Shown: positions 14,430-49,523 of the stretch, one piece after another | Position numbering within the stretch: position 1 is the stretch's first letter | Layout: every line of letters begins with the position of its first letter | Origin: Oscillospiraceae bacterium | GTDB taxonomy: Bacteria > Bacillota > Clostridia > Oscillospirales > Oscillospiraceae | Reading direction: 5' to 3' | NCBI GenBank assembly: GCA_017395085.1 | Contig: JAFPWF010000017.1 | Location: 1-64,000 of the forward strand | Length of the DNA stretch: 64,000 nt | The notes under the pieces: generated by a model | Seen by the model: only the letters and a program-made list of their open reading frames with translations | Told to the model about the DNA's origin: nothing | Database searches by the model: none | Translations under genes and position numbers: made by a program

Positions 14430-14772
14430 TGTTCCAGTTTTCTGACTTCTGAACGAAATTGTTATGTAGGATAAGGTGTTCCTTCTGAGTCAACTTGAGG
14501 CAGAGAAATACTTTTCTTCTGACTATGAACGAAGGTGCGAGCCGACTAAATACGCTGAAGAGATGGGCTGTAGGACTCTTGTGTGGTAGAGCGACTGGTG
14601 GCTGCGAATACGAGGTATCGACTCGGTGTGGATTATATGGTCCACGTATGACGGCGAAGTAGGTGTTGCAGGAGCGATAGCCAATGCTGAAGGGGCTGTG
14701 GTGAGACCGATTTTATTGGTAGATTTTGAATCTTGATTCTTACAGGAATGGGAAAGAAAAGGAGTGCGTGCC

Positions 14773-17521: not shown

Positions 17522-17562
17522 ACTTGCAGGGGAATTGATAATAAGAGAAGGGATGGTTGAGC

Positions 17563-26482: not shown

Positions 26483-27151
26483 ATGGCTAATGCTAGTTTT
26501 ACAAGAGATGAAGCTATTCTTGCATTAGATGTGCTATATCGTTCTAGTGGGCAACTCCCGTCTGCAAATTCAGAAGAGATCAAAGAGCTTTGCGGAGTAT
26601 TACAAGAACTTCCTATTCATCCGAAAGAGAATCGGAGAGTTGATTTTAGGAATGAGAGTGGTGTGAGAAATCAATTAGCTCTTTTCAAAAAAAGTTTTAA
26701 AAAAGGAGAAAAGGATCCTAACGTTGGAGCTGTCTTTTATTCAATAGCGATCGAATTCGAGAACAATTTGGAAGAATTACATCGAATTGCTAATGGTATT
26801 CGTAAAAACGTGACCTGTTTTAACAACCTGTTTGGTTCCGACTCTGAAGATGAGGGTTTTCCGGAAGGTGTTCTACTTGGTCATGCATATCGTGTGATTG
26901 AAAGAAGAGATGGGAAAAAGTGTAAGCTTGAACAAAGGTGTTCAATTTGCCAGATTGAACCAGATGTAATGTACCAGAAGGGAGATAGAATTCTTGAAGC
27001 TCATCTGATAGTAGATCCCTGTGATATAGTAGTCTCAAAAAAGTATTCAGCGCGTTGCTTTATTACAGTATGCCCAACATGCCACGCTGCATTACATAAG
27101 TATAGACCTTGGTTAAAGAAAAATGATTGTTCAATAATACTCCGCAGATAA
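26483..27151 (+). CDS. HNH-type nuclease domain protein
   Basis: C-terminal CSICQ...EAHLIVDPCD...CPTCHAALHKY matches the Cys-pair plus His HNH arrangement. Coupled to the upstream gene with a 3-nt gap. Confidence 0.45.
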   Translation: MANASFTRDEAILALDVLYRSSGQLPSANSEEIKELCGVLQELPIHPKENRRVDFRNESGVRNQLALFKKSFKKGEKDPNVGAVFYSIAIEFENNLEELHRIANGIRKNVTCFNNLFGSDSEDEGFPEGVLLGHAYRVIERRDGKKCKLEQRCSICQIEPDVMYQKGDRILEAHLIVDPCDIVVSKKYSARCFITVCPTCHAALHKYRPWLKKNDCSIILRR

Positions 27152-29487: not shown

Positions 29488-29506
29488 ATCGGAAGGAGCT
29501 CATAAA

Positions 29507-32500
29507 ATGCCTACTGAAAAATACAACAGTTATCTGGAAATCAATCCGGCATTTGAGTCTGTCGTTGATATTGATGCAGATAAGCGTAATGTCAATTTGT
29601 GGCGGGAGTATATCGTTGGCGATGATATGGTTACGCTGGTGGATTTCCTTTGCCAGTCATTAGGTAATGAAGCGCCGGATCTGCGCCGCTCGTTCTGGAT
29701 CCATGGTTCATATGGTACAGGTAAAAGCTATGCCGCCGTGTTCGTGAAGCATCTGATAGAAGAAAAGCCTGAAGTGATTGATGCTTTTCTTGCCGGTTCC
29801 AGCCGCTTGTCACAGTATAAAAACAGGTTTGCAAAATGCCGTCGTAACGGGGATTATCTTGTCGTTTGGAAAACAGGCTGCACTGGGATCCGTTCCGGGG
29901 ATATGATGTTGCTGGAAGCCGAAAAGGCAATTCAGGATGCTCTTCTCGAGAAGTTCGGTGAGGATGCGAATCTGGGCAGCAGTTCTTTGATGGATGCCGT
30001 TAAAGCAAAGCTTTCTGACCGTACGATCAATTGGGACGTCCTTCTTGAGACAACGGTGTTGGGAGAGGATTATTCCAGCGTGGAAGAACTCCGGCATCTG
30101 GTTGAAGTAGGGGATTTGTCTGCGTTGAAGGCAACTGCATCCGTCATCAGACAGAAAGGTATGGGACTGGTCAACAATCTTGAGACCTTCAAAGCCTGGG
30201 TCAGCGATGTCATTGATGCCAACAATCTTTCAAAGAGCGGTATCTTCTTTATCTGGGATGAATTCACGGAGTATGTAGCGCATAGCGATGATCATACAGT
30301 CATGCAGCAGTTGTCTGAGTTCTGCAAAGAAAAGCCGTTATTTATGTTCTTTGTTGTCCATCGCTCTCAGGAAATGCTGGATAGCATGGGGAATGATCGT
30401 TATCAGATGATTACGCATCGCTTCCATCAGGTTGAATTCCATGTCAGTTCGGATGCGGCATTTGATCTGATTGCCGGTTCTATTACCACGAGAAACGGAA
30501 TGGAAGAGGCATGGAAGGAAGATAGAAAACTGGTCATTAAGACGATCAAGCCCTTCCTGCCGGATATGTCCGGACTGGATGACAAAATCAGTGAACAAAT
30601 AGATACGCTTTGCCCGATGCACCCAATGACAATTCGTTTGTTGTCGCGTGTGGCGGAGAGTTTTGCCGCGGCGCAGAGAACAATGTTCCGTTTCATGAAG
30701 GACCGTTCGAGTAATGAGCATGGCTTCCTGGGCTATATCAACAAATATGGGCCCGACGATCAAGCGTGCTGGCTGACGCCGGATTGGCTCTGGGATTATT
30801 TCTTTACCAGAGAAAGCGATTTCAACGACAAGGATACCAAAGCGGCAGAATTCATCCATCATTATGAAGAGAACCGGCATTTGGTTCAAAATGATGAGAA
30901 TGCTCTCAGAGTTTTTAAGGTATCCATGCTTCTTTTGGCGGTAATGTCATCGACAAAGGGTGTTTATGGCGGCACGAAAACACAGGGCGGCATTTCCTCA
31001 ACCGTTGACTGCCTTGTTAACTGTCTTGCAGGCGTCATGTCTAAAGGTCAGGTGAAAGATCTTCTGGATACGTTGAGCGAGAGCAAGCTCATTCTGCAGG
31101 ATGAGGCCGCAAATGGAGTGGTGCGGCTGCAGCTTCCGTTCCGCGGCGGCAGCGATGATGAATACAAAGTGCGCTATGATGCCAATGATAAGAAGTATAC
31201 ACGGTATCAGATGTTTTCTAAGGACGGCGTTTTTGCCCAGGAGATTGAGAAAAAGTCCTGGGATGAAAATGATGCGGCGTATAAGCGCATGAAGATCTGT
31301 GCCTGCTGTGCAGAGACTAATTCCATCAAGACGAGGCTGGACGAAATTCAAAAGGACCTGGCCAAGTTCCAGTATAAACTTGGGCTTCTCATCGTTACCG
31401 TTCGGGATGAAGCACAGTACATGTCAATTCAGAGCGATCTGGCGCAGCGTTCGCGTGAAATGAATGAACCCCGTCTCATGATTGCTCTTGTCAAGCAGCC
31501 GTTTACGGAGGAGGCTCGGAAGAACTGGCTTAAGAGCCTGACAAAGCAGGAAATTGCTTATGCAAGAGGGCAGACAGCCTCTGGCGGTCAGTATAAACAG
31601 GAAGCGGCATCTGGTATTGCCAGGTGGGTTGGTAGTGCAGTTAGCGGCAGTAAGATTATTGCATGGCATGGCGAACAGGTGTTCAACAACCTGTATGGCA
31701 TGGCACATCTTCGCAAGACGGTCCATACGGCGGTTCTTGAAACGCTTTTCCCGTATGCGCCAGAGAGCGTAGTAGTTACGAATACCGCGTATAAGCCCTG
31801 CAACGATTCGGCACCCGCGGCAGGTATTACCCGTCAGACGAATAATGCCCAGTTGAAGAGCGTGCTGAACAGCCTGAAGACGGCGGGGCTCCTTGATCTT
31901 GTTTCAATAGATAAGATGGCTGAAGCTTCCGGGAGTAAAGCGGCAGATTCTGTCAGCCAGCTTGCGCGCATGATTCGCGATTCAATGCAGTCCGGTCAGA
32001 GGGTCGTTTTGGGCGACCTCTGGGAAAACCTGCAGAAGCCGCCGTTTGGTTATTACAACACCATTGCCTGCGGTGTGCTCCTCGGGTATGTGTTCTCATG
32101 TTACAAAGACAGCGCTTACAGTTGGACGGACAATGCCCAGAGTACGCATGTTTTGGGCGAGAATACACTGAAAACAATGGTCCTGAATATGTGCAAAGGG
32201 ACCATGACCACGGATTATCTGTCTGCCGGTTCCGTCACGTTCCAGAAGTTCCGCGAATATGTGAAAAGAATCCTTCATTTAACGGATGCACAGGTCGCAA
32301 ATGAAACGGAGTGCTGGCATAATATGCGTGAAGCGGTGACTAAAGCAGGCGCTCCGCTTTGGACACTGAAGTATTTGCCGGACATGGGTTACGGCGGGGC
32401 TAACTATAAAGATGCTGCAATGAAGATTATCGACAGCATGCAGCAGTTTATTGCCCAGGAAGGTGATCGCGAAGCTGCCATGAACAGCGTTTTGCAGGAG

Positions 32501-33712
32501 TTTAACGGCCGGGGTAAATTGAGATCATCGCTTGAAAAAGCGTTTCACGACAAGAATGTCATGAACACTGCATTCCGGACATTCCTGTTCACGGTATCTC
32601 CCGAACTGAATGAGATTGCCACAAGGCTTTCAGTACAGCCGGAAGAGTTGAGCGATAAGCTGCATATGGTCATGCAGAATGCGATCTACACATGGACAGA
32701 AGACCAGGTCAAAGAAAAACTACCCGATGTCGTAAGCGATTACAGTTATCTGGATACACTTAATGGAGTGATGGGCAAGGTTTATCACAGCACGGATAGT
32801 GCCAAGAGAGATCTTGTCAATGTGTTCAAATTCCTGCGCATATCGTTGGCAGCGATTAAGAAGACAAATGTTGCGTGGTATCCGGCGTTGGAAATCCTGC
32901 ACAGAGTGTCCCAGAAAGGCACTGCACAGATGACAGCCGAAGAGCGGTCTGCAGAGGTCGAAGTGCTGAAGCAGCATGGGCAAAAAGCATATGATTGCCT
33001 GAAAGATGCCAAGCCCGTTCTTGCGGAAGTGCTGGAGTCCGAGGGGATCGAGTGCACAAAACCGGAACTTGACTCGATTTATGCCAATTTGAAGGACATG
33101 CCCTGTGATGCAAGCCTTTCTCAGTTTGAGAAGGAACTGAAGTCTCAGATTAGTAAGATCAGTCACGCGAGAAATAGGGTACTTCTGAAAGAACGCTGGT
33201 TTATTCTTACAGGTGAAGACAGTGTCAAAAACTGGTGTAAAACTCACAGCGTCCCGCTTCTCTGGATTTTAGAACGCGATCAGCAGAAGGCGGTCAGAAC
33301 ATTGATAGAAGTGCAGAACGGGGAAAGAACTCTGGATCAGAACGTGCAGTTCGCTCTCGAAACTTTGGGCACAATGGATACTTCGATTCTTACAGATAAC
33401 GCCCGGATTGAAAAAGCGTTTATAGAAACTGTCGGTGAAGAGTATAGGAGTATTTACGAGGAAGAGCGTGATGTCCTGATTGCACAGGCGAAAATGAAGT
33501 TTGGCAATGATATGAGCGCCTGGAATATCAGTGATCTTGCGGTTCTTCAGAAAATGCTGAAACAGGCGCAGCAGGAAAAGGCCAAGAAAGAAAAACTGGC
33601 AAAGGCAAAAAGCTACGCGGAGGAAATGGATGCGTCCCTGTTGCGCAATCGTGTTGTTGCCTTCATGGAGAATCATCCGGAGTATTGTGACGACTTTACA
33701 AAAGAGCGGTAA
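29507..33712 (+). CDS. brxC: BrxC/PglY-like large P-loop ATPase
   Basis: Walker A GSYGTGKS near the N-terminus. Walker B-like IFFIWDEF. 1401 aa, typical of BrxC. Confidence 0.65.
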   Translation: MPTEKYNSYLEINPAFESVVDIDADKRNVNLWREYIVGDDMVTLVDFLCQSLGNEAPDLRRSFWIHGSYGTGKSYAAVFVKHLIEEKPEVIDAFLAGSSRLSQYKNRFAKCRRNGDYLVVWKTGCTGIRSGDMMLLEAEKAIQDALLEKFGEDANLGSSSLMDAVKAKLSDRTINWDVLLETTVLGEDYSSVEELRHLVEVGDLSALKATASVIRQKGMGLVNNLETFKAWVSDVIDANNLSKSGIFFIWDEFTEYVAHSDDHTVMQQLSEFCKEKPLFMFFVVHRSQEMLDSMGNDRYQMITHRFHQVEFHVSSDAAFDLIAGSITTRNGMEEAWKEDRKLVIKTIKPFLPDMSGLDDKISEQIDTLCPMHPMTIRLLSRVAESFAAAQRTMFRFMKDRSSNEHGFLGYINKYGPDDQACWLTPDWLWDYFFTRESDFNDKDTKAAEFIHHYEENRHLVQNDENALRVFKVSMLLLAVMSSTKGVYGGTKTQGGISSTVDCLVNCLAGVMSKGQVKDLLDTLSESKLILQDEAANGVVRLQLPFRGGSDDEYKVRYDANDKKYTRYQMFSKDGVFAQEIEKKSWDENDAAYKRMKICACCAETNSIKTRLDEIQKDLAKFQYKLGLLIVTVRDEAQYMSIQSDLAQRSREMNEPRLMIALVKQPFTEEARKNWLKSLTKQEIAYARGQTASGGQYKQEAASGIARWVGSAVSGSKIIAWHGEQVFNNLYGMAHLRKTVHTAVLETLFPYAPESVVVTNTAYKPCNDSAPAAGITRQTNNAQLKSVLNSLKTAGLLDLVSIDKMAEASGSKAADSVSQLARMIRDSMQSGQRVVLGDLWENLQKPPFGYYNTIACGVLLGYVFSCYKDSAYSWTDNAQSTHVLGENTLKTMVLNMCKGTMTTDYLSAGSVTFQKFREYVKRILHLTDAQVANETECWHNMREAVTKAGAPLWTLKYLPDMGYGGANYKDAAMKIIDSMQQFIAQEGDREAAMNSVLQEFNGRGKLRSSLEKAFHDKNVMNTAFRTFLFTVSPELNEIATRLSVQPEELSDKLHMVMQNAIYTWTEDQVKEKLPDVVSDYSYLDTLNGVMGKVYHSTDSAKRDLVNVFKFLRISLAAIKKTNVAWYPALEILHRVSQKGTAQMTAEERSAEVEVLKQHGQKAYDCLKDAKPVLAEVLESEGIECTKPELDSIYANLKDMPCDASLSQFEKELKSQISKISHARNRVLLKERWFILTGEDSVKNWCKTHSVPLLWILERDQQKAVRTLIEVQNGERTLDQNVQFALETLGTMDTSILTDNARIEKAFIETVGEEYRSIYEEERDVLIAQAKMKFGNDMSAWNISDLAVLQKMLKQAQQEKAKKEKLAKAKSYAEEMDASLLRNRVVAFMENHPEYCDDFTKER

Positions 33713-33744
33713 TTCTTATTCCATATTACGAGGGGCGTTTGAGC

Positions 33745-36096
33745 ATGACAGTTGATCAGGTAATTCAAGATTTGATGAAGGAAAAACAGCTCGGTGTTCC
33801 TTCACGTTTCCCTTGTCGGGCCATCATGGTCAAGAACATAGAGGATTATTCTGAGTTGCTTTCCAAACTGAACAGAATCCCGGATGTTTCATTTGTCCTT
33901 TCCGCCGATCTGTTTCCTTCTGCAGATGTTATGCCGCGCTTTGAAAAACTGAGGGATGAAAAATATCGCGATCAGTGGTTGATTCTGCCTGGTGTCAGTG
34001 AGTATCTGCGCCTGTTCAATAAAAGCGAAGCGGATACGCAGCGCTTTGCGAAACTGTGGAATGGCCAGGTGCCGGCAACCAGTAAAGGGAGAATTCTGAT
34101 TCCGTTATGGGGCTGCGAAGCTCAGTGGTATGATAAAGCGCTTCATCTTTGTGAAGATGAACGTCAGCTGGACTATTACTATGATTGCATAAACGAAAAC
34201 TCAGAGGAACAGCATCTCAATCTTACCGTGTTGTCCGGCGAATTCGAACAGTATGTTTTCCAGCTTTCTGCCAGAAACAGCAGTATTTGTTTTGGTTTGC
34301 AGGATTGGTACGATTATTGGGCGGAAGCGGACAGGATTCGTGAAGAGCAGATTTTGCTGACGAAACGGTATGCAACGATCCAGCCTACAAGCGGGAGTAT
34401 TCGGATCCGGGTAATCAGCGACAGCCTCTCGTTTATTCGTGAAAATATGCCTGGTGCAGAGATGCTGGATGATGAAGTGTGTCCAAAACAGGCGCAGGAT
34501 TTGCTGTTTGATTACGCACTTCATGACTGCACGCTGGATGATGCGATTCTGGCAATCCTGAATGCCAACAAGTTCGTGGGCAAAGAAGTTATGAGCAAAT
34601 GGAGCATCATGGGCCATGGAGAAAAGTATCTGGTAGTTCTTTGGCTGAAATTGCACGAAAAAGACGATTATCTTTGCCATTGTGTTTCAAAAGCAAAAAA
34701 TGTAGATGATATCCCGGAACATATCCTGCATGATGTTTTTGGTATGTATCGCACATATCCGAAATGGATCGCCGAGAGCCAGGAACTCGTCAATGCCATG
34801 GGCCTTGAAAGAGATGAGGATTACTTCAAAGCCCTGGATGAAATACCGGCATATGAAGACAGACTTCAGTTTCTTTCTGGGAAGGACAGGAACGACAGGA
34901 TATATTTGCTCAGACTTGTCGGCAAATGGCTCCGCTTGGATTCTGATCAGGTGTTTGCATCAAAGGAACTGGCCAGTATGTATCCGGCTCTTTTTGCCTA
35001 TCTTGATGAGTCCGCTTATGACAGCGATCTGAGCAGATATTTCTCGCTTTATAAGGCCCATAAGCTTGAGAATTCCCTTCCAGAAGATGAAGATTTGTAT
35101 TTCAGCGGTATACAGCCAGAGGATTATGATTTCCGATATGCTCAGCTGAGCAGCGAACTGACAGATGATTGCGTTATTCTCTGGGTCGATGCATTGGGCG
35201 CAGAATGGTTGCCGCTGCTTCTTTCAAAGCTGAAACAGGATAAAAAAGGAAAGATTAAGAAGTACGAGGTGGTACAGGCGACCCTGCCTACGGAAACCTG
35301 CTTCAATGATCAGTGGAATCAGATTGATGCACCGTATAAAAAACTGGATCTTCTGGACAAGTTGGCACATAAAGGCGTGATCGATGAGCCCGATTATTAT
35401 ACCTGTATCGAGGAGCAGCTTTCGTTTGTGTCCGGTATTCAGAGGAAAGTCGATGAGCTCCTGAAAGAATACCACCGTGTCATCATTACCGGCGATCACG
35501 GGACAAGCCGGTTGGCAGCACGCTTCTTCCATAAAAGGAGCGGTGCAAGTGTGCCTCATGGTGCAAAGGTTTGCAGTCATGGTCGCTACTGCCAGATACA
35601 GCCACAGACCGTTCTCACTCAGCCTGATATAGTCCTGGTTAAGGATAAAGCGGGAAATCAGTATGCTGTTTTCAATAATTATGATCATTTTATCCAGTCT
35701 GGTTTTGCAGCTGGTGCCGATGATGATAATGCGATTTACGGTGAAGTTCATGGTGGCGCAACGCCGGAGGAGATGCTGGTTCCGCTTATCGTGTTTGACA
35801 GCAATCAGGAGATTCCTCTAAAGGCTGAATGGCAAAGCAGCATGGTCAAGATCATGGCAAAAAAGGCGAAAGCGACGCTGAAGTTTAATCGCCCGGTAAA
35901 CAGTCTGAATGTTAGGATCGGCGCTGTCTTGGGTACAAGTTCGCAGACAGCCGACAGCAGGGTATGGACTGTTGAGTTCCGGGGGGTTGAACCCAAAACG
36001 CATAATGTCACTGTTGCAGCAAACGGAGCTCTTGTTCAGGTTGAGATGCTGACGATTAAACCGGCGTTGGGTGGCGGAGAAGGAGATCTCCCATGA
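33745..36096 (+). CDS. pglZ: PglZ-domain (alkaline-phosphatase superfamily) protein
   Basis: VILWVDALGAEWLPLL metal-site block and ITGDHGTSR motif, characteristic of PglZ/alkaline-phosphatase fold. 785 aa. Confidence 0.6.
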   Translation: MTVDQVIQDLMKEKQLGVPSRFPCRAIMVKNIEDYSELLSKLNRIPDVSFVLSADLFPSADVMPRFEKLRDEKYRDQWLILPGVSEYLRLFNKSEADTQRFAKLWNGQVPATSKGRILIPLWGCEAQWYDKALHLCEDERQLDYYYDCINENSEEQHLNLTVLSGEFEQYVFQLSARNSSICFGLQDWYDYWAEADRIREEQILLTKRYATIQPTSGSIRIRVISDSLSFIRENMPGAEMLDDEVCPKQAQDLLFDYALHDCTLDDAILAILNANKFVGKEVMSKWSIMGHGEKYLVVLWLKLHEKDDYLCHCVSKAKNVDDIPEHILHDVFGMYRTYPKWIAESQELVNAMGLERDEDYFKALDEIPAYEDRLQFLSGKDRNDRIYLLRLVGKWLRLDSDQVFASKELASMYPALFAYLDESAYDSDLSRYFSLYKAHKLENSLPEDEDLYFSGIQPEDYDFRYAQLSSELTDDCVILWVDALGAEWLPLLLSKLKQDKKGKIKKYEVVQATLPTETCFNDQWNQIDAPYKKLDLLDKLAHKGVIDEPDYYTCIEEQLSFVSGIQRKVDELLKEYHRVIITGDHGTSRLAARFFHKRSGASVPHGAKVCSHGRYCQIQPQTVLTQPDIVLVKDKAGNQYAVFNNYDHFIQSGFAAGADDDNAIYGEVHGGATPEEMLVPLIVFDSNQEIPLKAEWQSSMVKIMAKKAKATLKFNRPVNSLNVRIGAVLGTSSQTADSRVWTVEFRGVEPKTHNVTVAANGALVQVEMLTIKPALGGGEGDLP

Positions 36097-36293
36097 GCAG
36101 GAAAAAGGTATGCTGTGATTGCGGCAGGTCGTTAAAAAAAGATGAAGTTGCGCTGACGAAGAAGCTGATTGATATCGATTCGGAAGAATTCTATTGCTTG
36201 GATTGTATGGCCGATTTTATCGGTTGTTCGGTTCAGGATCTGAAAGAAAAAATTCAGGAATTCAAAGAGCAGGGTTGCACCCTGTTCCTGTGA
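36093..36293 (+). CDS. small zinc-ribbon protein, translationally coupled to pglZ
   Basis: 66 aa. CCDCGRS...YCLDCM. The start overlaps the pglZ stop. Confidence 0.4.
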   Translation: MSRKKVCCDCGRSLKKDEVALTKKLIDIDSEEFYCLDCMADFIGCSVQDLKEKIQEFKEQGCTLFL

Positions 36294-36305
36294 CGGAGGG
36301 CTAAT

Positions 36306-37766
36306 ATGCTGGAAGATAAAGTCAGGGAAGTATTTGCTGATATGATTGTTTTGAAAGACCCGCAACGCAGCGAGTATTTTTCAAATCTCAGTATTCCCTC
36401 ATATATGCGCGATTGGCTGGTCATGAAGTTTTCGGATGAAGACGGTTCGATTGACTACGACAGCGTTCGTCGTTATATCAAGCGGTACATTCCGAGTCGT
36501 GAGGACTTCGAGCAGTACAAGTTCCAGATGGTAAATGGTGAAATTGTTCAGTTTCTTGCCCGTGTTCGTGTTTCTGTCGATGTTAAGCGTGGTAAGACAA
36601 TGTTTGAACTGCCGGATTTCGGCGGTTCAAGAGGCGGTGCTGCCGGTGTCGTTGCTTATGATGTGGCTGAAGAGTGGCAGGAAACGCTGCTCCGCGAGAG
36701 CGAAAACTGGGGTATTGTCACATTATCCTGGGTTATGGAGGGGACACCATCCAATCCAAAGGGCGTTATCAGCATGGTAGATTACAGGCCGTTCTGCCCG
36801 TATTCAGTTGATCTGGAAGTTTATCGCGAAGCCCGGCGTGAATTTGACATTCATGAGTGGATTGATACGGTAATCCGGGCTGTGGATTATAATCCGGACG
36901 GTTACTGCGACAAGGATGGCAATGTGAGCGAGGAGACAAAGCTCTTCTTTCTGAGAAGGCTTCTGCCGTTTGTTGAGAAACGGGTTAACTTGATTGAGCT
37001 TGCTCCAAAAGGCACAGGCAAAAGCTACGTTTTTGAAAAAATCAGCAAACGCGGCTGGCTGATCAGCGGTGGTACTGTATCAAGGGCGTCTCTCATTTAT
37101 GATAATGCCAAGAAAACCGGCGGGTTGCTGACACGATTTGATTATGTCGGCTTTGATGAAGTGCAGTCCATCACATTTGAGCAGCCAGGTCAGATCCAAC
37201 AGGCGTTGAAACACTATATGGAATTTGGCGAGATTAAAGGCTTCGATGCCATGCTAACGGCGGATGCGGGCGTTATTGTTCTTGGCAACATTAACGCAGA
37301 TCGCTTTGATATCAATAAAAACATGGTTGAGCATATCAGTGATGTGTTTGGTGAATCTGCAACCTTGGACCGTTTCCACGGGTTTATCCCTGGATGGGAG
37401 ATCCCGAGAATGACTACGGGGATGATCGCCAAAGGCTGGGCGATTAATACGGAATATTTCGCAGAAGTGATGCATGCGCTTCGGGATGATCTGAGTTACG
37501 CGGCTATTGTGGATGAGCTGATTGATTATCCCTCAAACGCAGATAAACGCCATATGACCGCAATTAAACGTCTGTGCACTGCTTTTATGAAGCTTTTGTT
37601 CCCGCATGTTCAATCGGTAGAGGATATTGATAAGCAGGACTTTATCAAGTATTGTCTGAATCCCGCTATAGAGATGCGGTCGGTTATCTACAGGCAGCTC
37701 TGCATTATCGATCCGAAAGAATATAATGTGAAAAGCAAGCAGATACCTGAAGTTGTTTGTGTGTGA
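36306..37766 (+). CDS. brxL: BrxL-like AAA+ ATPase (N-domain + ATPase; appears to lack a Lon-protease-like C-terminal domain)
   Basis: N-terminal MLEDKVREVFADMIVLKD..YMRDWLVMKF resembles the BrxL N-terminus. Walker A APKGTGKS. Walker B YVGFDEVQS. Only 486 aa. Confidence 0.5.
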   Translation: MLEDKVREVFADMIVLKDPQRSEYFSNLSIPSYMRDWLVMKFSDEDGSIDYDSVRRYIKRYIPSREDFEQYKFQMVNGEIVQFLARVRVSVDVKRGKTMFELPDFGGSRGGAAGVVAYDVAEEWQETLLRESENWGIVTLSWVMEGTPSNPKGVISMVDYRPFCPYSVDLEVYREARREFDIHEWIDTVIRAVDYNPDGYCDKDGNVSEETKLFFLRRLLPFVEKRVNLIELAPKGTGKSYVFEKISKRGWLISGGTVSRASLIYDNAKKTGGLLTRFDYVGFDEVQSITFEQPGQIQQALKHYMEFGEIKGFDAMLTADAGVIVLGNINADRFDINKNMVEHISDVFGESATLDRFHGFIPGWEIPRMTTGMIAKGWAINTEYFAEVMHALRDDLSYAAIVDELIDYPSNADKRHMTAIKRLCTAFMKLLFPHVQSVEDIDKQDFIKYCLNPAIEMRSVIYRQLCIIDPKEYNVKSKQIPEVVCV

Positions 37767-37786
37767 TTGTTTAAGGGGAGTTCATT

Positions 37787-38902
37787 TTGATTTATGCTGA
37801 CAACGCGGCCACAACAAGAATGGATCTTGCCGCTTATCATGCTATGCAGTCCTGGCTTCAGGTAGAATACGGGAATGCATCGCAGCCGTATTCTTATGCC
37901 CGGAAACCGAAACAGGCGCTTGCAAATGCACGGGAGATCATAGCGGCTTGTATCAACGCTCAACCGGATGAGATATATTTCACTTCCGGTGGAACGGAAA
38001 GCGATAACTGGGTGATTAAAAGTTCGGCTTTCTCTGATCCGGATCATCGTGAGACAATAACGACAGCTTTCGAGCATCATGCTGTTTTGAATTCGTGCGC
38101 GGTGATTGAGCGGCTGGGGTATCCGGTTTCTTATCTTATGCCAGATGAAAGTGGCAAGGTGTTGCCGGAGGCTCTCAGGGCTAAAATCACAGACAGGACC
38201 AGACTTGTTTCCGTCATGTTCGCGAATAATGAGATCGGGAGCATTCAACCGATTCGCGAGTTGTGTTCCGTGGCGCATGAGCATGGCGCGTTGTTCCATA
38301 CCGATGCGGTGCAGGCTGTAGGGCATGTGAAGATTGATGTCAAAGAACTGGGAGTTGATTTTCTCTCTTCTTCCGCTCATAAATTCAATGGCCCGAAGGG
38401 AATAGGTTTTCTCTATATTCGCAACGGCGCTGATTTACTGCCCTACATGGACGGCGGTGCGCAGGAAAAGAAGCATCGTGCAGGGACAGAAAACATTGCT
38501 GCAATATCGGGTATGGCGGAAGCATTAAAGGGAAATTGTGAGTACATGGAGCAGAATGAGGAACACATACGCGGTCTGGAAACCATGATCCTTAATGCCC
38601 TCTCAGCTGCCGGCGTTCGGTTTCAACGCAACGGCGGGGATTATACTCTGCCGGGGTTGATGAGTTTGTCATTCCCCGGGTTTTCAGGTGAAGCGATTCT
38701 TCACAGGATGGATTTGATGGGGATTTGCATATCAACCGGGTCGGCTTGCGACAGTGTAAATACGGAGATTTCTCATGTACTGAGGGCCATTAATCTGGAA
38801 GACTCCCTGGCAACGGGGACAGTTCGAATCTCGCTGGGCAAGTTCAATACAGTTGAAGATGCTGCTAGGATTTCTGAGTCGCTGATCAGAATCGTAAAGT
38901 AA
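37787..38902 (+). CDS. cysteine desulfurase (class V aminotransferase, NifS/IscS/DndA-like)
   Basis: IYADNAATT..., FTSGGTESDN, PLP-lysine region SSAHKFNGPKGIGFLY, and active-site Cys region GSAC. 371 aa. Confidence 0.8.
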   Translation: MIYADNAATTRMDLAAYHAMQSWLQVEYGNASQPYSYARKPKQALANAREIIAACINAQPDEIYFTSGGTESDNWVIKSSAFSDPDHRETITTAFEHHAVLNSCAVIERLGYPVSYLMPDESGKVLPEALRAKITDRTRLVSVMFANNEIGSIQPIRELCSVAHEHGALFHTDAVQAVGHVKIDVKELGVDFLSSSAHKFNGPKGIGFLYIRNGADLLPYMDGGAQEKKHRAGTENIAAISGMAEALKGNCEYMEQNEEHIRGLETMILNALSAAGVRFQRNGGDYTLPGLMSLSFPGFSGEAILHRMDLMGICISTGSACDSVNTEISHVLRAINLEDSLATGTVRISLGKFNTVEDAARISESLIRIVK

Positions 38903-38924: not shown

Positions 38925-40007
38925 ATGTCCATCATTTTTGAGGAAAGTTCTGAACCTGTAGTTTCCACTGCTTCTAAAGATAATTCCGGTAGAAGAAGTG
39001 CTTTTGCGCTTGATGCTATTCAAGGACAGTCTAAGGCAGTTGACTTATTGAAATCATACTGTCGTGAAGCAAAAGAAAAGAATATTCCTCTGGAGCATAT
39101 ATTGCTATCCGGTTCTAGCGGTTTAGGAAAAACAGTGCTTGCTGAAGCAATAGCAGGTGAGATGGATGCCGTTTTAAGAGAGTTTTCAGGCAGTTCCATC
39201 TCCTCCGATGCTGCTCTTGTTAAGGCATTGACCACTATCAATGAAGGCGATGTGCTGATAGTTAAAGATATCCACAAGTTGAATATCGTGAAAATGAAGT
39301 ATTTCAGCCAGCCTCTGAAGCGTTTCGAAATTGATTTGGATATTATGGATAGTACTATTCATCTTGAACTGCCACATTTCACGATGATTGCGACGACGAA
39401 TCAGCCTGATCTGCTCGCTGATGAAGTGAGAAATGCTTTTGATATCCAGCTTGAATTAGAGTCGAATGTGGTCGAAAACATTCACCTGAGGAAAGGCAAC
39501 AGGGTTTGTTTTAACTCGTTGCCTTTTGTCTCTCTATATATTGCAAATGTCATCGGTTATTATGATGCTCAAGGAAATGCTTTTTTTGTATCTGATCGGA
39601 ACATGGATGCAGATTTCAAAGACGATATAGTTTTGATCAAGAAATCTTCTGCTCTGGATAGTGTTTTTAAGAATGTTTCAGAGTTTACTATTTCGCCCTG
39701 CCTTTGCGTGGGAAGGAAGCGAGGCGTTTATTATGTACAACCTTCGGAGACGGTTGAGTTATTATTAGAAAGAGATGTTGAGAGAAAAGCGAAAAAAGTC
39801 AATGCCCCTTTTCTGCCGTCGCATCCCTTAACTGTGGAATGCAGAGTTGAAAAACAGGACCCATGGCTGTTGGAAGCCAGAATAATCAATGTATCTGCAG
39901 ATACTTCAATTCTTGATGACGAAGGGAACATTGATCCAACGGCGCTGTTTCATGAGTTGATGTATCTTCGAATGGGTGATTATCAAGAGAATGAAGCATT
40001 AGAGTAA
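38925..40007 (+). CDS. RuvB-like AAA+ ATPase paralog with a degenerate Walker B
   Basis: Collinear similarity to the RuvB N-domain: [23 protein letters not shown] ~ [33 protein letters not shown] aligns to RuvB VLFIDEIHRL, so D-E is replaced by K-D. The C-terminal 150 aa are unrelated. Confidence 0.6.
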   Translation: [360 protein letters not shown]

Positions 40008-41401
40008 TGATGAGGTTTAATGAGAAGTTAAAAGAGAATATATCCGAAATAGTTGTAACAGTCCGCAAAATAGAGAAGATCCTGACTGAGAAACAGGTAT
40101 TGCAGGAGTCTGTAATTAATCAGATCGCACACACATGCACGAGACTGGCGCTGCTGGCAATGGCAGCCTCAGATGAACTTGAGGTTGCAGGTGCTGTTGA
40201 AGACCGTCTGGTTCAAAGAGAGGTTGCGACTGCTCTATGGCAGATGGCACTCCATTTTATTGATATCCAGCAGGGCTGTAAGCTTGATGAGTTGCGTTAT
40301 CATTTCAAGCTGATAGGGAAACACAGTAACAGTGTTTTACAGCTGCTCGGTCTGCCTGAGCCGTTGTTTGTGGATAGTGGTGTTGTAGAGGGGAAGCCCT
40401 CTAATGATTCTGTGATTACCCGTGCGCAACCAATGGCATCTCCGCAAGATGATGGTAATGGTGTGTTTTCGGCCGGTTCTTCAATTGCTGTTCCCTTGAA
40501 TAATGTAAATGAAGAAGAGCGGCTGAGACGCGAAGTAAAGTCTTTGCGAGAGATCCTTTCTTCTTTGCTTCTGAAACGCGACCATCTTCTGCTGGTAGAA
40601 AGCAAGGAATTGGAAGCGTGGTATCTGAGGGAACTCGGCAATCTTGAGATTGAGGTCTTTTATGAAGAAAGCAATGCCAGATATTTGCAGCGGAAATATG
40701 AGCTTCTGGTGGCGGCGGTTAATCGCAGCGAGAAGATATCCAGGGAAGAGGTAGAGAACAAACTCAAGGAACAGGCAGAAACCTTCCGTAAAGCTTATGA
40801 GGAATATATGCGTCACGCGCAGGAGACCAACGATACGGTTCGGCAGCGTCGCGAAAACGTGAAAAATGCTGCCAATAAAAACGGACAGGAAGAAAAAAGG
40901 AATGAGGATGCTGTTGAGGCTGATGATGTAAGCAACGTCAAAGATCAAAGATCTGAGGAAGAGCCGCCAGAGGGAGAGAAGCGCCTGAAGCAACTCTACC
41001 GGAAACTCGTTAAGGCAATGCATCCGGACCTGCATCCCGATCAGGATGATAAAACGAAAGAACTGTTTAAGAGAGTGATTCATGCCTACGAGACGGGCGA
41101 TCTTCAGACGCTTGAAGAAATAGACAGCATAATCAACGGATTTGTTCCGGAAGAAAGCGGAAATCCATATGGTGCGCTTCTAGTAGAAAAGCAACGACTC
41201 CTGCAAATGATTCAGAGCATCCGTGCTCAGATTTTTATGATTCTTGGTCGTTTCCCCTTTACAAAACGAGAGCTGTTAAATGACCCCGCAAGATTGAAGT
41301 TAGAGCGTGAAAAACTGGAGGATCGTTTGATAAAGGCAAAAGAAAAGGCAAGAGCCTACAATGAGCGTATTATCGAGATTGAAAGGCAGCAAAATGGATG
41401 A
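40007..41401 (+). CDS. coiled-coil protein with a C-terminal J-domain (DnaJ-like)
   Basis: LYRKLVKAMHPDLHPDQ...ELFKRVIHAYE shows the helix II/III spacing with the HPD tripeptide. Long N-terminal coiled coil. The start overlaps the upstream stop (TAATG). Confidence 0.55.
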   Translation: MMRFNEKLKENISEIVVTVRKIEKILTEKQVLQESVINQIAHTCTRLALLAMAASDELEVAGAVEDRLVQREVATALWQMALHFIDIQQGCKLDELRYHFKLIGKHSNSVLQLLGLPEPLFVDSGVVEGKPSNDSVITRAQPMASPQDDGNGVFSAGSSIAVPLNNVNEEERLRREVKSLREILSSLLLKRDHLLLVESKELEAWYLRELGNLEIEVFYEESNARYLQRKYELLVAAVNRSEKISREEVENKLKEQAETFRKAYEEYMRHAQETNDTVRQRRENVKNAANKNGQEEKRNEDAVEADDVSNVKDQRSEEEPPEGEKRLKQLYRKLVKAMHPDLHPDQDDKTKELFKRVIHAYETGDLQTLEEIDSIINGFVPEESGNPYGALLVEKQRLLQMIQSIRAQIFMILGRFPFTKRELLNDPARLKLEREKLEDRLIKAKEKARAYNERIIEIERQQNG

Positions 41402-41843
41402 TTTAATTCTGAAACCTGCAGATGCCGAACTGGTTTCAATGCTCGACAGCTGGAAAGCTTTGAGCATGCCAATGCCTTATGAACGCGATATTTATCTTTT
41501 AGCTGTTCCGGTTGCAGGTACAAGTTATAAAGAGAATATCGGCGAGCTGGCAGAGCATCTGTCAGAAGGAGATCTGGTAACGCTGATCCGTGAGCCGGAG
41601 AATCCATACGATGAATTTGCCATCAGAATGGATGTGGATCTGGATGGCGTTCCGGGCATTGGTCCGGGTGAAGGGGATAAAAACAATCTGACTAGGAAGA
41701 TGGGTTATATTCCGCGGGCGACAAATAAAGTGTTTGCCCGCCTGATGGATGCTGGAAAACTGCTGTTTGGCGTGATTAGAAGTGTAGATATGATAACGGA
41801 TGATTATTACCGTATCATGGTAAAAATCTACATGCGTGATTAA
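41394..41843 (+). CDS. HIRAN-domain protein
   Basis: VAGTSY...GDLVTLIREPENPYDEFAIRMDV...GYIPRATNKVFARLMD matches the HIRAN consensus. ATGGATGA overlap with the upstream gene. Confidence 0.6.
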   Translation: MDDLILKPADAELVSMLDSWKALSMPMPYERDIYLLAVPVAGTSYKENIGELAEHLSEGDLVTLIREPENPYDEFAIRMDVDLDGVPGIGPGEGDKNNLTRKMGYIPRATNKVFARLMDAGKLLFGVIRSVDMITDDYYRIMVKIYMRD

Positions 41844-41877
41844 AGAACCGTTATCGTAAGTGCCGGGGGGTGCTTTT

Positions 41878-42801
41878 GTGGCGAAGGACAACAGACAGAA
41901 GATTAAGCTTTTGTATCTCATGGAGATGCTGCGGCAGGATACGGACGAGCAGCACCCGCTGACTACCAGTGAGATCTGCAGGCGGCTGGGGGTGAAGGGC
42001 ATCACCTGCGAGCGGCGCACCGTCGGCATGGATATGAAGGTGCTGAATGATTTCGGATACGAGGTCATGTCCTGCACGGTCGGGCATGAAAAGGCCTACT
42101 ATGTGGACGACCGCAGTTTTTCCGTACCGGAGATCAAGATTCTCATGGACGCGGTGCAGGCGGCAAAGTTCATCACGCCGGGAAAGAGTGATGCGCTGGT
42201 TTCAAAACTCGCCGCACTGGGCGGCAGCCATCAGGCGGAGATCCTGAAGAGCAACATCGTCTGTTTCAACACGCGCAAGCACACCAACGAGATGATTTTC
42301 TATAATGTTCAGGCGTTGGAGGATGCGATCCGGGAGCGGAAAAAGGCTTCGTTTCTGTACTTCGACCTGAATGAGAAGCGGGAGCGGGTATACCGCAGGG
42401 ACGGCGCGAGGTACGTGGTGGATCCCATGGCGCTCGTGTACGACGAGGACAATTATTATCTCCTGTGCTACAATCTGAAGCACGAAAACGTGACCACCTA
42501 CAGGGTAGATCGGATGGAACGGGTTTGCGTGGAAGAGGAGGATGTCTGCCCGCAGGCAATTGTGGAAAGGGACATCCACGGCTACACTTCGCAGGTCTTC
42601 AAGATGTTCAACGGCGAAGCGAAGGAGTTTACCATCGTGTTTGACGAGTCCCTGCTCGGAGCGGTTTATGACCGGTTTGGGGAAGAGGTCGAAGTCCGGC
42701 GGGTCGGGGAGAAGCTCTGCAGCATTACGGTCACCGTGCAGGACAGCCCGGTGTTCCGTGGCTGGCTTGCGCAGTTCGGCGATCTGGTTAACATCGCATA
42801 A
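41878..42801 (+). CDS. second WYL-domain transcriptional regulator (paralog of the gene at 22180; high-GC copy)
   Basis: N-terminus KIKLLYLMEMLRQDTDEQHPLTTSEICRRL parallels RILYILQILQEGSDQEHPVTIVEIITQL. About 300 aa. Confidence 0.6.
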   Translation: MAKDNRQKIKLLYLMEMLRQDTDEQHPLTTSEICRRLGVKGITCERRTVGMDMKVLNDFGYEVMSCTVGHEKAYYVDDRSFSVPEIKILMDAVQAAKFITPGKSDALVSKLAALGGSHQAEILKSNIVCFNTRKHTNEMIFYNVQALEDAIRERKKASFLYFDLNEKRERVYRRDGARYVVDPMALVYDEDNYYLLCYNLKHENVTTYRVDRMERVCVEEEDVCPQAIVERDIHGYTSQVFKMFNGEAKEFTIVFDESLLGAVYDRFGEEVEVRRVGEKLCSITVTVQDSPVFRGWLAQFGDLVNIA

Positions 42802-42836: not shown

Positions 42837-42891
42837 TTGACGGGGAGACCGGGCGCGTTTATAATGCAGTCAAACAGAAATAATTATTTCT
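42837..42891 (+). promoter_or_regulatory. putative lexA promoter (TTGACG-N17-TATAAT) with a 16-bp perfect palindrome AGAAATAATTATTTCT just downstream
   Basis: -35 at 42837-42842, -10 at 42860-42865. Palindrome at 42876-42891, about 25 nt upstream of the lexA ATG. Confidence 0.35.
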
Positions 42892-47037: not shown

Positions 47038-49026
47038 CTATTCCTTCCGGTACGTCCGGCAGGTGTAACCGTCGGCGCGCAGCTTCAGCCCGGGCAGCCA
47101 GTCCGGCGTCTGCCCCATCAGCCGACAGATTTCCTCCACGTCGTCCGATTCGATGATCACTTCGTCATGCACATGCCCGACGACCGGGTACCGCCACAGG
47201 CGTTTCATGGCATCCGCCAGCAGGTCGCGGCTGATGGCCTGGACAATGTTTTCCGTCAGCTTCGGCCCGTAGGTTTCGATGCGGCTCCAGTGCCTGGCGG
47301 CGTCGAGACCGTCATAGGTGATGACCTCGCTGCCGTAACGGCCTTCCTCGATTTTGGCTCTCAGATAGCAGAGCTCCCGTCCGGAGGGAATGGCAACCCG
47401 CAGCATCTGATTCTTATACTCAAAGCTAAGCGGTCCGGCCACGGCAGTCATCCTCTCGGTGACGGCCTGTTTTGCGGCGCGGTCCACGTCCCACCAGAAT
47501 TTCACGATCCTGGGGTTTGCCTCCCGCCAGGAACTGACCAGTTCGTCCAGTTCCTCTTCCGGCGCGCCCATCTCGAGAGCGCCCATGCTTTTCAGCGCCC
47601 CGGTGCTGCCGCCGTAACCCAGCGCCAGTTCGGCGATCTTGCCTTTCTGGCGGAGCTCTCCGTTGATGCCGTGCTTTACCACGGGTACGCCAAACATTTT
47701 GCTGGCGCTTGCGGCGTATATGTCTCCGCCCTCATCGAATACCCGTTCCCTCCAGCGTTCACCGGCAAGGTGCGCGAGCACTCTGGCTTCAATGGCGCTG
47801 AAATCCGCCACTGTGAATTTCTTCCCACTGCTGGGAATGAATGCGGTTCTCACCAGTTCGGAGAGTACGGCAGGTACTTCGCCGTAGAGGAGCGCTACGG
47901 TTTCCTCATCGCCGGCCTTTACCAGCGCCCTCGCCACATCCAGATCCGGGAGTTTGTTCTGCGGCAGGTTTTGCAGCTGGACCATCCGCCCGGCCCAGCG
48001 GCCGCTTCTGCTTGCTCCGTAGAATTGGAACATGCCGCGGCATCTGCCGTCGCTGCAGACGCAGTTCAGCATCGCCTCGTATTTCCGTACGCTGCTTTTG
48101 GCTGCCTGCAGCCGCAGCGAGAGGACTTCCTGTATCAGAGGGTCTGTGCTTTCTTTCATCAGGGCTTTGGCTTCCTTCCTGCCGAGGCTGTCCGCTTTCA
48201 GTCCGCGGCCCTGCAGCCACTCTTTCAGTTGAAGGACTGAGTTCGGGTTTTCCAGCCCCGTCAGGTCCCTCATGCATCTCGTGAGTTTCGCCCTGGCGCC
48301 GGCGTCCATCTTCACGGCCTGCTGCACGAAGTCCGTGTCGATCCGGATGCCCCGGTCGTTAATTTCCTGATCGAGGGCATATTCCTCCCAGACCCGGTCG
48401 GGAACGGGGAAGTTCTTCAGCTTTTCCTGTATCTGCAGTTCCGCATCCACGTCCCGCCTGTTGTAGGCAAGGAAGCGCTCCCATTCCAGCGGCGCATCCG
48501 CCGGACGCGTAAAACGCCGTTCCGCAAACAGCGTCTGCTGGCTGTCATTGCCTTCAGCCTCCTTCGTCATGGTCGGTACGCAGAACTTCCGGATCAGCTC
48601 TTTCCCTTCGCTCAGTTTCTGCTTTTCCAGCCCGAGCACGGCGCCGGTCATTGCCAGCCCCGGGGGCAGCCCGTTGTAGGCGCTCAGCACCATGCTGCAT
48701 CGCCAACCGGCGGGGTCGAGGAAGGGGAGACCGTGGTAGCCCGGTACCAGTTCCGGTTTGATTCTGTTCAGCCAGCGGCTCAGGCAGACGCGCTCGAAGC
48801 CTGCGTTGTAAGCCCATTTCAGCACGCGTCCGTCATTCAGCGCTTCCAGGATCTCTTCCGGCGGCAGCTGTCCGCCGGCCACGTCGTATACAAGCGGCTC
48901 CGCGCCGTCCACGCTGACGCCGAAGAGCAGGATGTCGAAATCCGGGTCTTCTGCGTAGCGGTACACGCCGCATTTGGAGATGTCCGCCCCGCTGCGGGTT
49001 TCCAGGTCAATGCTCAGGGTTTTCAT
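47038..49026 (-). CDS. family-A DNA polymerase with an N-terminal 3'-5' exonuclease domain (phage type)
   Basis: Exo I motif LSIDLETRS. Pol A palm motifs (e.g. [28 protein letters not shown]). Confidence 0.7.
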
Positions 49027-49523
49027 GCCGTGCACCATCCGTATCTCTTCCCGTTCCGGATGCGGTTGATCATGCTGATATCCACGTCAAAGTTCCAGGC
49101 AAGCTGCCTGTCCGTGTGCCCTGCGAGCATGCCGAAGCGGATGCCTTCTACATCCGCAAGGTCCAGTTTGCAGCGCTTCCCGCCCTGAAGGTAGATGTCG
49201 TGGTTGTTTTCCGCGGCATTGCCAAAGCGCAGGTTTTCGGGCCGGTTGTCCGTGGGATCTCCGTTGTTGTGCAGCACCATCATGCCTTCCGGGCAGGGGC
49301 CGAGAAAAGCGGCGGCGACCATGCGGTGCACCTGCTCCTCTTTGTTGTGGTGAATGTAAAATGACAGATGTCCGCTCCGGTCGCGCACCCGGGGCCGGAT
49401 GATGTTGTTTTCATCCAGTCTCCTGCGGCGTCCGCAGTCATGGCAGCGGATTCTTCCCGCCGTACTGGCCTGCAGGATGCCTTCGTAACCGGGAACATCT
49501 TTCCATGTTTCAGGTTCCATCAT
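49023..49523 (-). CDS. HNH homing-type endonuclease
   Basis: HNNGDPTDNRPENLRFG..NNH is an HNH_3-type motif. 166 aa. Confidence 0.6.
   Translation of the reverse strand: MMEPETWKDVPGYEGILQASTAGRIRCHDCGRRRRLDENNIIRPRVRDRSGHLSFYIHHNKEEQVHRMVAAAFLGPCPEGMMVLHNNGDPTDNRPENLRFGNAAENNHDIYLQGGKRCKLDLADVEGIRFGMLAGHTDRQLAWNFDVDISMINRIRNGKRYGWCTA

Follow-up and report, generated by a model that had tools for sequence, protein, structure and literature searches.

Type 4 BREX systems of the phosphorothioating kind are defined by brxP, brxC, pglZ and brxL together with a cysteine desulfurase in one cluster (PMC12914056, PMC12839542). HIRAN domains, in turn, form the small second gene of the two-gene HipN/HipL modules and have been proposed to sense phage DNA ends there (PMC8262856), and phage sensing by bNACHT25 is mediated by host DnaJ (PMC12169576). 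Here we describe a cassette of three genes directly downstream of a type 4 BREX operon in an Oscillospiraceae bacterium (assembly GCA_017395085.1, contig JAFPWF010000017.1, positions 1 to 64,000 of the forward strand; this whole 64,000-nucleotide stretch is referred to as the window). The genes encode a fusion protein with a RuvB-derived AAA+ domain (open reading frame [ORF] 38925), a J-domain protein (ORF 40007) and a HIRAN protein. An initial annotation of the window had treated them as a single three-gene module, whereas our results give good support to a different division, in which the J-HIRAN pair is the conserved unit and the RuvB-like gene is a rare optional partner.

Comparison with described systems revealed both shared and distinguishing features for each component. 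The HIRAN protein shares with HLTF and Rad5 the fold and a REPxNPYDxxAI segment that aligns to the HLTF HIRAN domain, whereas its partner is a J protein instead of an SNF2 motor; it also has the subfamily RLMDAGK motif in common with the uncharacterised protein lp_0118 (PDB 3k2y). HipBST/HipIN-type modules (PDC-M03) contain a HipA-like kinase partner and, on the HIRAN protein, a HipS-like domain, both of which are missing from J-HIRAN loci, and the window protein matched only the HIRAN part of PDC-M03B (1.7e-9). The family of ORF 40007 has in common with the co-chaperones DnaJ, CbpA and DjlA the hallmarks of helix II, HPD and helix III (basic residues, F..AY), but lacks helix I, the G/F or zinc-finger client-binding region and a membrane anchor, having instead long coiled coils, a four-helix bundle in its long form and a HIRAN gene as partner. 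Phage RB43 Rki is a J protein of a mobile element. In the case of bNACHT25, a housekeeping DnaJ serves an NLR-like sensor, whereas the window locus has its own dedicated J protein and no NACHT protein. Finally, although the cassette directly follows, and is co-oriented with, the cysteine desulfurase of the type 4 BREX operon and no terminator is predicted between them, its three proteins are not listed among the components in a 457-taxon survey and an experimental study (PMC12839542, PMC12914056), and most J-HIRAN pairs have no BREX nearby, which is not the pattern of a recurrent BREX component.

Neither the pair nor the triad had a model in PADLOC, which returned domain-level matches only (an IetA-type AAA, and the HIRAN of the HipA-linked candidate PDC-M03B), and PHROGs gave generic domain matches only, with no family of J-HIRAN composition. 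Full-text literature searches found no paper linking HIRAN with a J domain or DnaJ, or a J-domain composition of this kind with antiphage defence, and RuvB, DnaJ and HIRAN go unmentioned in PMC12914056, PMC12839542 and a reappraisal of the phosphorothioation machinery. The composition of J-HIRAN with an optional, apparently dead RuvB paralogue is without a described counterpart, in agreement with the initial annotation.

Conservation of the J-HIRAN pair

The J family was divided into 60 clusters at 70% identity (28 at 50%). Of the 60 clusters, 55 had a HIRAN gene within 4 kb and 3 had a RuvB-like gene, so that the proposal of a three-gene cassette as the unit did not survive. J-HIRAN loci numbered 47 in species-representative genomes (185,579 species genomes) and 71 in metagenomes, and in at least 100 of the 111 loci with room for it the HIRAN gene was directly downstream. 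The pair occurred in Bacillota, Bacteroidota, Verrucomicrobiota, Chlorobiota, a metagenome-assembled genome (MAG) of Thermomicrobiales and Methanobrevibacter; the taxa included Clostridia, Selenomonadaceae, Streptococcus, Lacticaseibacillus, Ezakiella, Prevotella and other Bacteroidales, Verrucomicrobia and Chlorobiaceae. In the window, the TAATG overlap of the RuvB-like and J genes and the ATGGATGA overlap of the J and HIRAN genes both read as initially described (Table 1), and a 4-nucleotide (nt) overlap of ATGA type or an 8-nt overlap of ATGnnTGA type recurred at the J/HIRAN junction of most of about 50 other loci, indicating that this arrangement is not due to chance. All-against-all clustering of 399 neighbour proteins revealed no conserved third gene around the pair.

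The J protein is predicted to consist of an N-terminal four-helix bundle (residues 6-114), a linker, an antiparallel coiled-coil hairpin (166-294), an acidic linker, a J-like domain (322-376) and C-terminal helices (387-463). Pfam DnaJ (PF00226) matched residues 324-363 at 1.3e-6, with 28.8 bits against a cut-off of 27.8 and over profile positions 14-52 of 63, and PDB J domains were matched at 7e-5. The HPD motif (residues 339-341, nt 41021-41029) was invariant in 30 family members, as were the basic helix II and the F..AY of helix III across the family, and the predicted helices flanking HPD (322-338 and 348-363) were modelled with a predicted local distance difference test score (pLDDT) of about 90. 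Thus the coiled coil and J-domain of the initial annotation hold, with the refinement that helix I is absent: helix II is preceded by an acidic disordered linker, and the fold is not the complete four-helix J fold. Foldseek of the J-protein model against the PDB gave no significant match because the protein is all-helical. About 30 full-length members of the family, 33-49% identical, fell into two forms, a short one of about 270 residues (coiled-coil hairpin, J-like domain and C-terminal helices) and a long one of 390-490 residues that adds the N-terminal four-helix bundle and is found mostly in Oscillospiraceae/Clostridiales.

The HIRAN assignment was confirmed by Pfam (PF08797, 2.8e-14, 53.2 bits against a cut-off of 24.7) and by a match to PDB 3k2y (1.5e-5). 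Among 46 homologues, an R, the D of NPYD and three further residues (G, D and G) were invariant, the N of NPYD was present in 44, and the residues flanking NPYD varied little or not at all; an N-terminal motif (P-F/Y..I.L) is conserved as well. The protein thus combines the fold with an NPYD-type motif of the 3'-end pocket. ORF calling allowed a start at 41361 or 41394, of which the latter is supported because its Met is conserved in 40 of the 46 homologues. By analogy with the HLTF studies cited in PMC8262856, the protein would bind 3'-OH ends of single-stranded DNA. Searches with the J protein gave zero matches in the phage collection, plasmids and IMG/VR, and searches of phages with the HIRAN protein gave only one unrelated 262-residue protein, from Streptococcus phage Javan584, with no J partner. 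In that protein (L140 3533-4321) the HIRAN-like part is C-terminal, and its gene lies between repressor-side genes and the integrase.

Tight coupling and a small second gene are also features of toxin-antitoxin-like modules, and HIRAN proteins have been predicted to be antitoxins of HipA-like kinases (HipN; PMC8262856); the window protein matches the PADLOC candidate PDC-M03B. The free J protein would then be toxic by uncoupling or titrating DnaK, and the HIRAN protein would neutralise it until DNA ends appear, which overlaps with the abortive-infection version of the explanation favoured below. Other toxin-antitoxin-like genes do lie near the pair (DUF4258 with Fic at locus L061, HigB at L066). 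However, the size of the J protein and its additional conserved domains would be unusual in a toxin, and neither a HipS-like nor a kinase partner is present, so that we regard a toxin-antitoxin-like module as very unlikely.

The RuvB-like fusion protein

The initial annotation described ORF 38925 as collinear with RuvB across the ATPase core, which proved true of the N-terminal half, whereas residues 181-360 form another domain. Residues 1-180 align along their length with the large domain of RuvB at about 37% identity: Pfam RuvB_N matched residues 29-177 (2.8e-26, 92.6 bits), an AlphaFold2 (AF2) model based on a RuvB alignment had pLDDT above 90 for residues 24-180, and the best Foldseek match of this half was RuvB 8efv (E 2.8e-17, rmsd 1.0 Å). 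In an alignment with 36 RuvBs, Walker A (GSSGLGKT) was intact and sensor 1 (IATTN) was kept, whereas Walker B read VLIVKD (nt 39252-39269) in place of VLFIDE, bearing out the reported change of DE to KD, and the arginine-finger segment read VRNAFD in place of LRDRFG, with Ala at the finger position, which we take to be the equivalent of E. coli RuvB R174. The LRP motif of RuvB is lost and the β-hairpin shortened, no match to the AAA lid (PF17864) or the RuvB_C winged helix (PF05491) was found in ORF 38925, and against the RuvB equivalog models (NF000868/TIGR00635) it scored 100 bits, well under the cut-off of 282. Judged by these motifs, the AAA+ domain probably binds ATP but cannot hydrolyse it, and the term branch-migration-motor homologue does not apply in the functional sense to a protein without the catalytic Glu, the arginine finger, the AAA lid and the C-terminal winged helix.

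Full-length relatives of ORF 38925 were limited to 100%-identical copies of the same element on eight contigs; these copies, and homologues for both halves, rule out an orphan or decaying pseudogene. Public gene calls begin the ORF at an internal TTG (301 residues, P0001), dropping residues 1-59 (window 38925-39101; L001 9824-10000). As both the RuvB homology (from residue 28) and the confident part of the model (from about residue 24) reach into the dropped segment, translation more probably starts at the ATG at 38925, despite a weak ribosome-binding site.

Co-occurrence of the three genes outside the window had been set beforehand as a check on the module, and RuvB-like, J and HIRAN genes were found together at two further loci. 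The genes of L087 all point the same way: WYL (4.6 kb upstream), Metallophos, J (479 residues), RuvB-like (279 residues, overlapping the J stop) and HIRAN. At L010, a Sel1-repeat protein and a 253-residue RuvB-like protein (RuvB_N and lid, no RuvB_C) are encoded beyond the J and HIRAN genes, on the opposite strand; the sister genome L011 lacks this two-gene insert. A profile of the three RuvB-like proteins, run against 5.8 billion proteins, recovered only these three lineages (441, 432 and 299 bits), the next matches being canonical Oscillospiraceae RuvBs at 257 bits or less. The three share derived states, namely a Walker B of KD, DD or ED (with Asp at the position of the catalytic Glu), A, C or S in place of the arginine finger, RFG changed to xF[D/E], loss of LRP and no RuvB_C domain. 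With catalytic Glu, arginine finger and C-terminal domain all missing, the three proteins are not branch-migration motors. All three lineages adjoin J-HIRAN, each with a long-form J protein and in three different gene orders, and it is hard to explain without a functional link why every detectable RuvB-like paralogue should be there. A 439-residue gene upstream of the J gene at L003/L057 was considered as an equivalent of the RuvB-like protein or of the barrel described next and was ruled out, as it had no similarity to either and no Pfam match.

The C-terminal half of ORF 38925, which the initial annotation had not set apart from the RuvB-like protein, is a divergent flavoredoxin-like split β-barrel. 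AF2 gave no fold for residues 181-360 (pLDDT below 50), and direct Pfam and NCBIfam scans of this half found nothing above cut-off (Flavin_Reduct, 13 bits against 27). An exhaustive phmmer search of 1.84 billion representatives found 27 proteins, about 20 of which form one family, either as stand-alone proteins of 155-180 residues or as the C-terminal domain of proteins of 300-420 residues, and its weaker matches were true Flavin_Reduct proteins, reached at 6e-7. The barrel assignment follows from hhalign of the family with Flavin_Reduct (PF01613) proteins (99.2% probability, E 9.5e-20) and from the match of the family profile to PDB flavoredoxin 2d5m (8e-4); the score below the Pfam gathering threshold marks a divergent offshoot, which may bind flavin. 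The family shares with flavin reductase/flavoredoxin proteins the VNAP...P..ECk and terminal ...D..G.iD motifs but has IGYYDEdG where these have an AAWGG-type N-terminal segment, and it is found beside phosphorothioation (PT) clusters and J-HIRAN pairs, in contrast to the redox-metabolism contexts of Flavin_Reduct. The full barrel alignment was too divergent for further scans, and a three-sequence alignment found nothing in JGI metagenomes or IMG/VR; the phage collection gave no match and plasmids one weak match annotated as flavin reductase.

The neighbours of the barrel raise the question of which system ORF 38925 serves. P0151, the closest homologue at 39% identity, is flanked on one side by an SspABCD-like phosphorothioation cluster (PAPS reductase, DUF4007, BrxC-like ATPase and cysteine desulfurase), from which it is divergent, and on the other by an SLFN/DUF2075 helicase directly downstream; P0152 lies directly 3' of GmrSD within a Dnd/Ssp-like cluster; P0166 adjoins an FRG-domain gene; and P0153, a stand-alone barrel, immediately follows a J-HIRAN pair in L066/L067 (J 42% and HIRAN 56% identical), where the sequence available for L066 (3.7 kb upstream and 10 kb downstream) contains no PT gene. 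ORF 38925 and J-HIRAN could therefore be two unrelated neighbours, the former belonging through its barrel to the phosphorothioation/BREX-4 machinery, where it could be a DNA-tethered redox or sulfur-handling accessory or a PT-linked restriction partner, and the pair, perhaps with the WYL gene, being an independent cassette. The positions of P0151 and P0152 fit this division, as does the start of ORF 38925 only 22 nt past the stop of the BREX-4 cysteine desulfurase on the same strand, and BrxP has an Fe-S ferredoxin-like region that would need electrons (PMC12839542). Nevertheless, the RuvB-like half is found only beside J-HIRAN (three of three lineages), ORF 38925 overlaps the J gene, a barrel follows J-HIRAN at L066/L067 as just described, and PMC12914056, PMC12839542 and the phosphorothioation-machinery reappraisal mention no such component. 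We consider two unrelated units unlikely, and ORF 38925 may be part of the PT system, part of the J-HIRAN module or a bridge of both.

Across the three types of PT cluster beside which it was observed (BREX-4, Ssp-like and Dnd-like; L062:6576-9228, L063, L064 and L065:8019-11116), the barrel family may represent an undescribed partner or accessory of PT-based systems. L066 has an Enc34-like gene for a single-stranded DNA (ssDNA)-binding protein (44% identity) and a sigma-like gene in common with the window, suggesting that the two contexts may stem from one ancestral association in a phage lineage.

Genomic contexts of the pair

BREX genes lie directly upstream of J-HIRAN in the window, L012 and L061, with the pair following BrxL in the latter two; a BrxL gene within 4 kb was found for only 3 of the 60 J clusters. 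Other defence neighbours were GmrSD (four clusters), type I HsdR, an HmaA-type SNF2 protein with SACS, and an Eco57I-type methylase with T5orf172, and a homologous WYL gene flanks the pair at L003/L057, L060 and L091. As raw neighbour counts, these data are suggestive of enrichment in defence islands.

WYL regulators recurrent beside the pair, and housekeeping neighbours at many loci, would also suit a function outside defence, in which J-HIRAN is a DNA-damage or replication-stress accessory or feeds into the prophage lysogeny switch. Such an accessory could bring DnaK to stalled forks, or to DNA nicked by neighbouring restriction-type systems, and so limit self-damage. The HIRAN domain of HLTF is established to act in fork reversal (PMC8262856), the window pair is directly upstream of the WYL gene, a LexA-like S24 repressor and a helix-turn-helix (HTH)/ImmA pair, and the L066 pair belongs to a related phage-like element, where it has the same early genes nearby. 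However, the distribution over 47 loci in so many species genomes, in bacteria and a methanogen, is patchy, and patchy spread across domains of life fits an accessory module that moves horizontally and not a repair pathway. Recurrence beside BREX, GmrSD, type I restriction-modification and Hma-like genes and absence from phage collections also speak against an accessory of this kind, which we judge to be clearly unlikely.

Several further arrangements were seen at individual loci. In L003 (1-11702) and L007 (2476-10321) the pair comes after genes for SACS, a sacsin-type Hsp90-like ATPase, and for an HmaA-type SNF2 helicase, which in L003 is fused to HEPN_Swt1. In eukaryotic sacsin, a single protein combines SACS repeats with J and HEPN domains; the same set is thus distributed over neighbouring genes at these two loci. 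Several unrelated lineages, a Methanobrevibacter among them, encode Sel1/TPR repeat proteins, which are often chaperone adaptors, right beside HIRAN (Table 1). An additional HIRAN-like ORF (167 residues) lies directly after a BrxL fragment and upstream of J-HIRAN at L061 (3-1797), a 352-residue HIRAN-containing protein is encoded directly 5' of the J gene at L086 (3717-4775), and in an Ezakiella MAG (L023:9453-9968) the gene of a small NTPase_1/THEP1-like P-loop protein, another nucleotide-binding protein coupled upstream, overlaps the J gene start.

Proposed mechanism

The anatomy of the locus is well supported: directly behind BREX-4, in a prophage island, stands a J-HIRAN core joined by a WYL regulator and by two optional parts, an apparently dead RuvB paralogue and a flavoredoxin-like barrel. 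We propose that the HIRAN protein, through its NPYD 3'-OH pocket motif, would bind free ssDNA 3' ends, such as those of phage genomes, rolling-circle or recombination intermediates and stalled forks. The J protein, which translational coupling would keep at a 1:1 ratio with HIRAN, would engage host DnaK-ATP through its HPD motif and trigger hydrolysis. DnaK would then be directed onto, or trapped at, protein-DNA complexes on those ends and phage replication would be blocked; alternatively, replication would be blocked by diversion of DnaK from phage functions that need it. The RuvB-like subunit would be a nucleotide-bound, non-translocating anchor on DNA or junctions, or a switch, and no motor, and the WYL protein would set expression of the cassette. 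The module may in this way recognise junctions or replication intermediates, as the initial annotation suggested. For this combination of 3'-end sensing, DnaK recruitment, a non-motor RuvB-like protein and a role in defence or as a defence accessory, we estimate a probability of roughly 0.45.

Several observations weigh against this proposal. The J domain, judged by sequence, lacks helix I and is scarcely above the Pfam cut-off. The RuvB-like gene is missing from 57 of 60 clusters and cannot be essential, and the barrel also occurs beside PT clusters that have no J-HIRAN pair, so that ORF 38925 may serve the BREX-4 part of the locus. The window and L066 are related phage-like elements, which means that their contexts are not independent. 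Many J-HIRAN loci are set among housekeeping genes (ribosomal L15e, enolase, glycosyl hydrolase, phosphotransferase system, AcrB), the pair is not covered by any PADLOC model, and its absence from sequenced phages, plasmids and IMG/VR gives no support to its being mobile defence cargo beyond this prophage lineage.

In its furthest form, the proposal would make J-HIRAN a new antiphage class with host Hsp70 as the effector, in which HIRAN detects phage 3' ends, the J protein fires DnaK at the replication complex or drains DnaK away, the dead RuvB is a junction anchor or a decoy of the host motor, and, as a separate point, the barrel family is a new accessory of PT systems; we consider all of this together doubtful. 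Should J-HIRAN prove to act in defence or as a defence accessory, no earlier module of that kind would have a J-domain co-chaperone of its own, and the host proteostasis machinery (DnaK) would be tied to nucleic-acid sensing through HIRAN, a domain best known from eukaryotic fork reversal. The analysis provides three testable objects. The first is a two-gene core whose range takes in Clostridia, Bacteroidota and Methanobrevibacter. The second is a very small family of RuvB paralogues, similarly dead and always beside that core, and the third is a flavoredoxin-like barrel, repeatedly seen next to phosphorothioation clusters and possibly a partner so far missing from PT-based immunity.

Organization of the window locus

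Table 1. Positions of the cassette, its sequence features and neighbouring genes. Numbers refer to the window unless a locus is named.
Feature	Position	Strand	Details and basis
Fusion protein, 360 aa: RuvB-derived AAA+ large domain and flavoredoxin-like β-barrel	38925..40007	+	
RuvB_N-like AAA+ α/β domain, residues 1-180	38925..39464	+	Pfam, AF2, Foldseek, motif alignments
Divergent flavin-reductase/flavoredoxin-like split β-barrel, residues 181-360	39465..40004	+	phmmer, hhalign, PDB match
TAATG stop/start overlap, RuvB-like gene/J gene	40005..40009	+	GAGTAATGATG: TAA 40005-40007, ATG at 40007, last A shared
All-helical J-domain protein, 464 aa	40007..41401	+	
J-like domain: helix II, HPD, helices III and IV, without helix I	40970..41134	+	Pfam, PDB matches, alignment, model
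ATGGATGA start/stop overlap, J gene/HIRAN gene	41394..41401	+	AAAATGGATGA: ATG 41394, TGA 41399-41401
HIRAN protein, 149 aa	41394..41843	+	NPYD motif at nt 41601-41612; Pfam, PDB, alignment
DndA/SspA/NifS-like cysteine desulfurase, last described type 4 BREX component (context)	37787..38902	+	
WYL/WCX regulator, 16 nt 3' of HIRAN gene	41860..42801	+	Pfam and neighbour comparison
TPR-TIR-DUF6273 protein, 903 aa	11718-14429		
DUF2971 protein	14764-15693		
SPFH/Band-7 protein with double zinc ribbons, 611 aa	15686-17521		
YbjQ-like protein	17557-18261		
Sel1/TPR genes beside HIRAN at other loci	L010:11861-12919; L012:11729-12439; L082:6540-7097; L013:11274-12302; L028:11126-11914		

The initial annotation placed the cassette inside a defence operon, and the setting is indeed a type 4 (phosphorothioate) BREX operon. 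The operon at 27166-38902 has brxP, brxC, pglZ, brxL and the cysteine desulfurase in one cluster, matching the published definition; its parts are a WYL regulator at the head, BrxP (PAPS_reduct and Fer4), BrxC, PglZ, a 66-residue zinc-ribbon protein, BrxL and the DndA/SspA-like cysteine desulfurase. A promoter and terminator scan over 8 kb, in which counts were near chance, found no convincing terminator between the cysteine desulfurase and the cassette. Its sole strong promoter-like site, a sigma-70-like TTGACG-17-TATAAT at 42837-42865, is 3' of the WYL gene, which is probably the regulator of the cassette, and a new transcription unit probably starts at this site. The site sits within the 5' end of the longest LexA-like ORF, suggesting that the repressor probably starts later (200 residues in public calls).

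The cassette and operon are part of a low-GC island at about 11.7-42 kb (41-49% GC, compared with 56-62% in the flanks), bordered by a CHAP/PG-binding lysin (10345-11154) on one side and a lysogeny-type module (WYL, LexA-like S24, HTH, ImmA) on the other. Beyond the lysogeny module are sigma factors, an HNH protein, an Enc34-type ssDNA-binding protein and a family A DNA polymerase (47038-49038, minus strand) that is 57% identical to polymerases of phi-m46.1/Javan-type Streptococcus prophages. The region 10345-49038 looks like a prophage with a defence island of about 30 kb and low GC. A complete type 4 BREX carried by a prophage is unusual; the locus indicates that a complete BREX can travel on a prophage and that BREX type 4 loci of gut and rumen Clostridia bear uncatalogued add-ons.

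Further defence candidates in the island are the four genes from TPR-TIR-DUF6273 to YbjQ-like in Table 1. Two ORFs at the head of the BREX-4 operon (23243-26479, 1078 residues, and 26483-27151, 222 residues) gave zero Pfam or NCBIfam matches and are not among the published BREX-4 components (PMC12914056, PMC12839542); both lie between the WYL/BrxR-like gene and BrxP.

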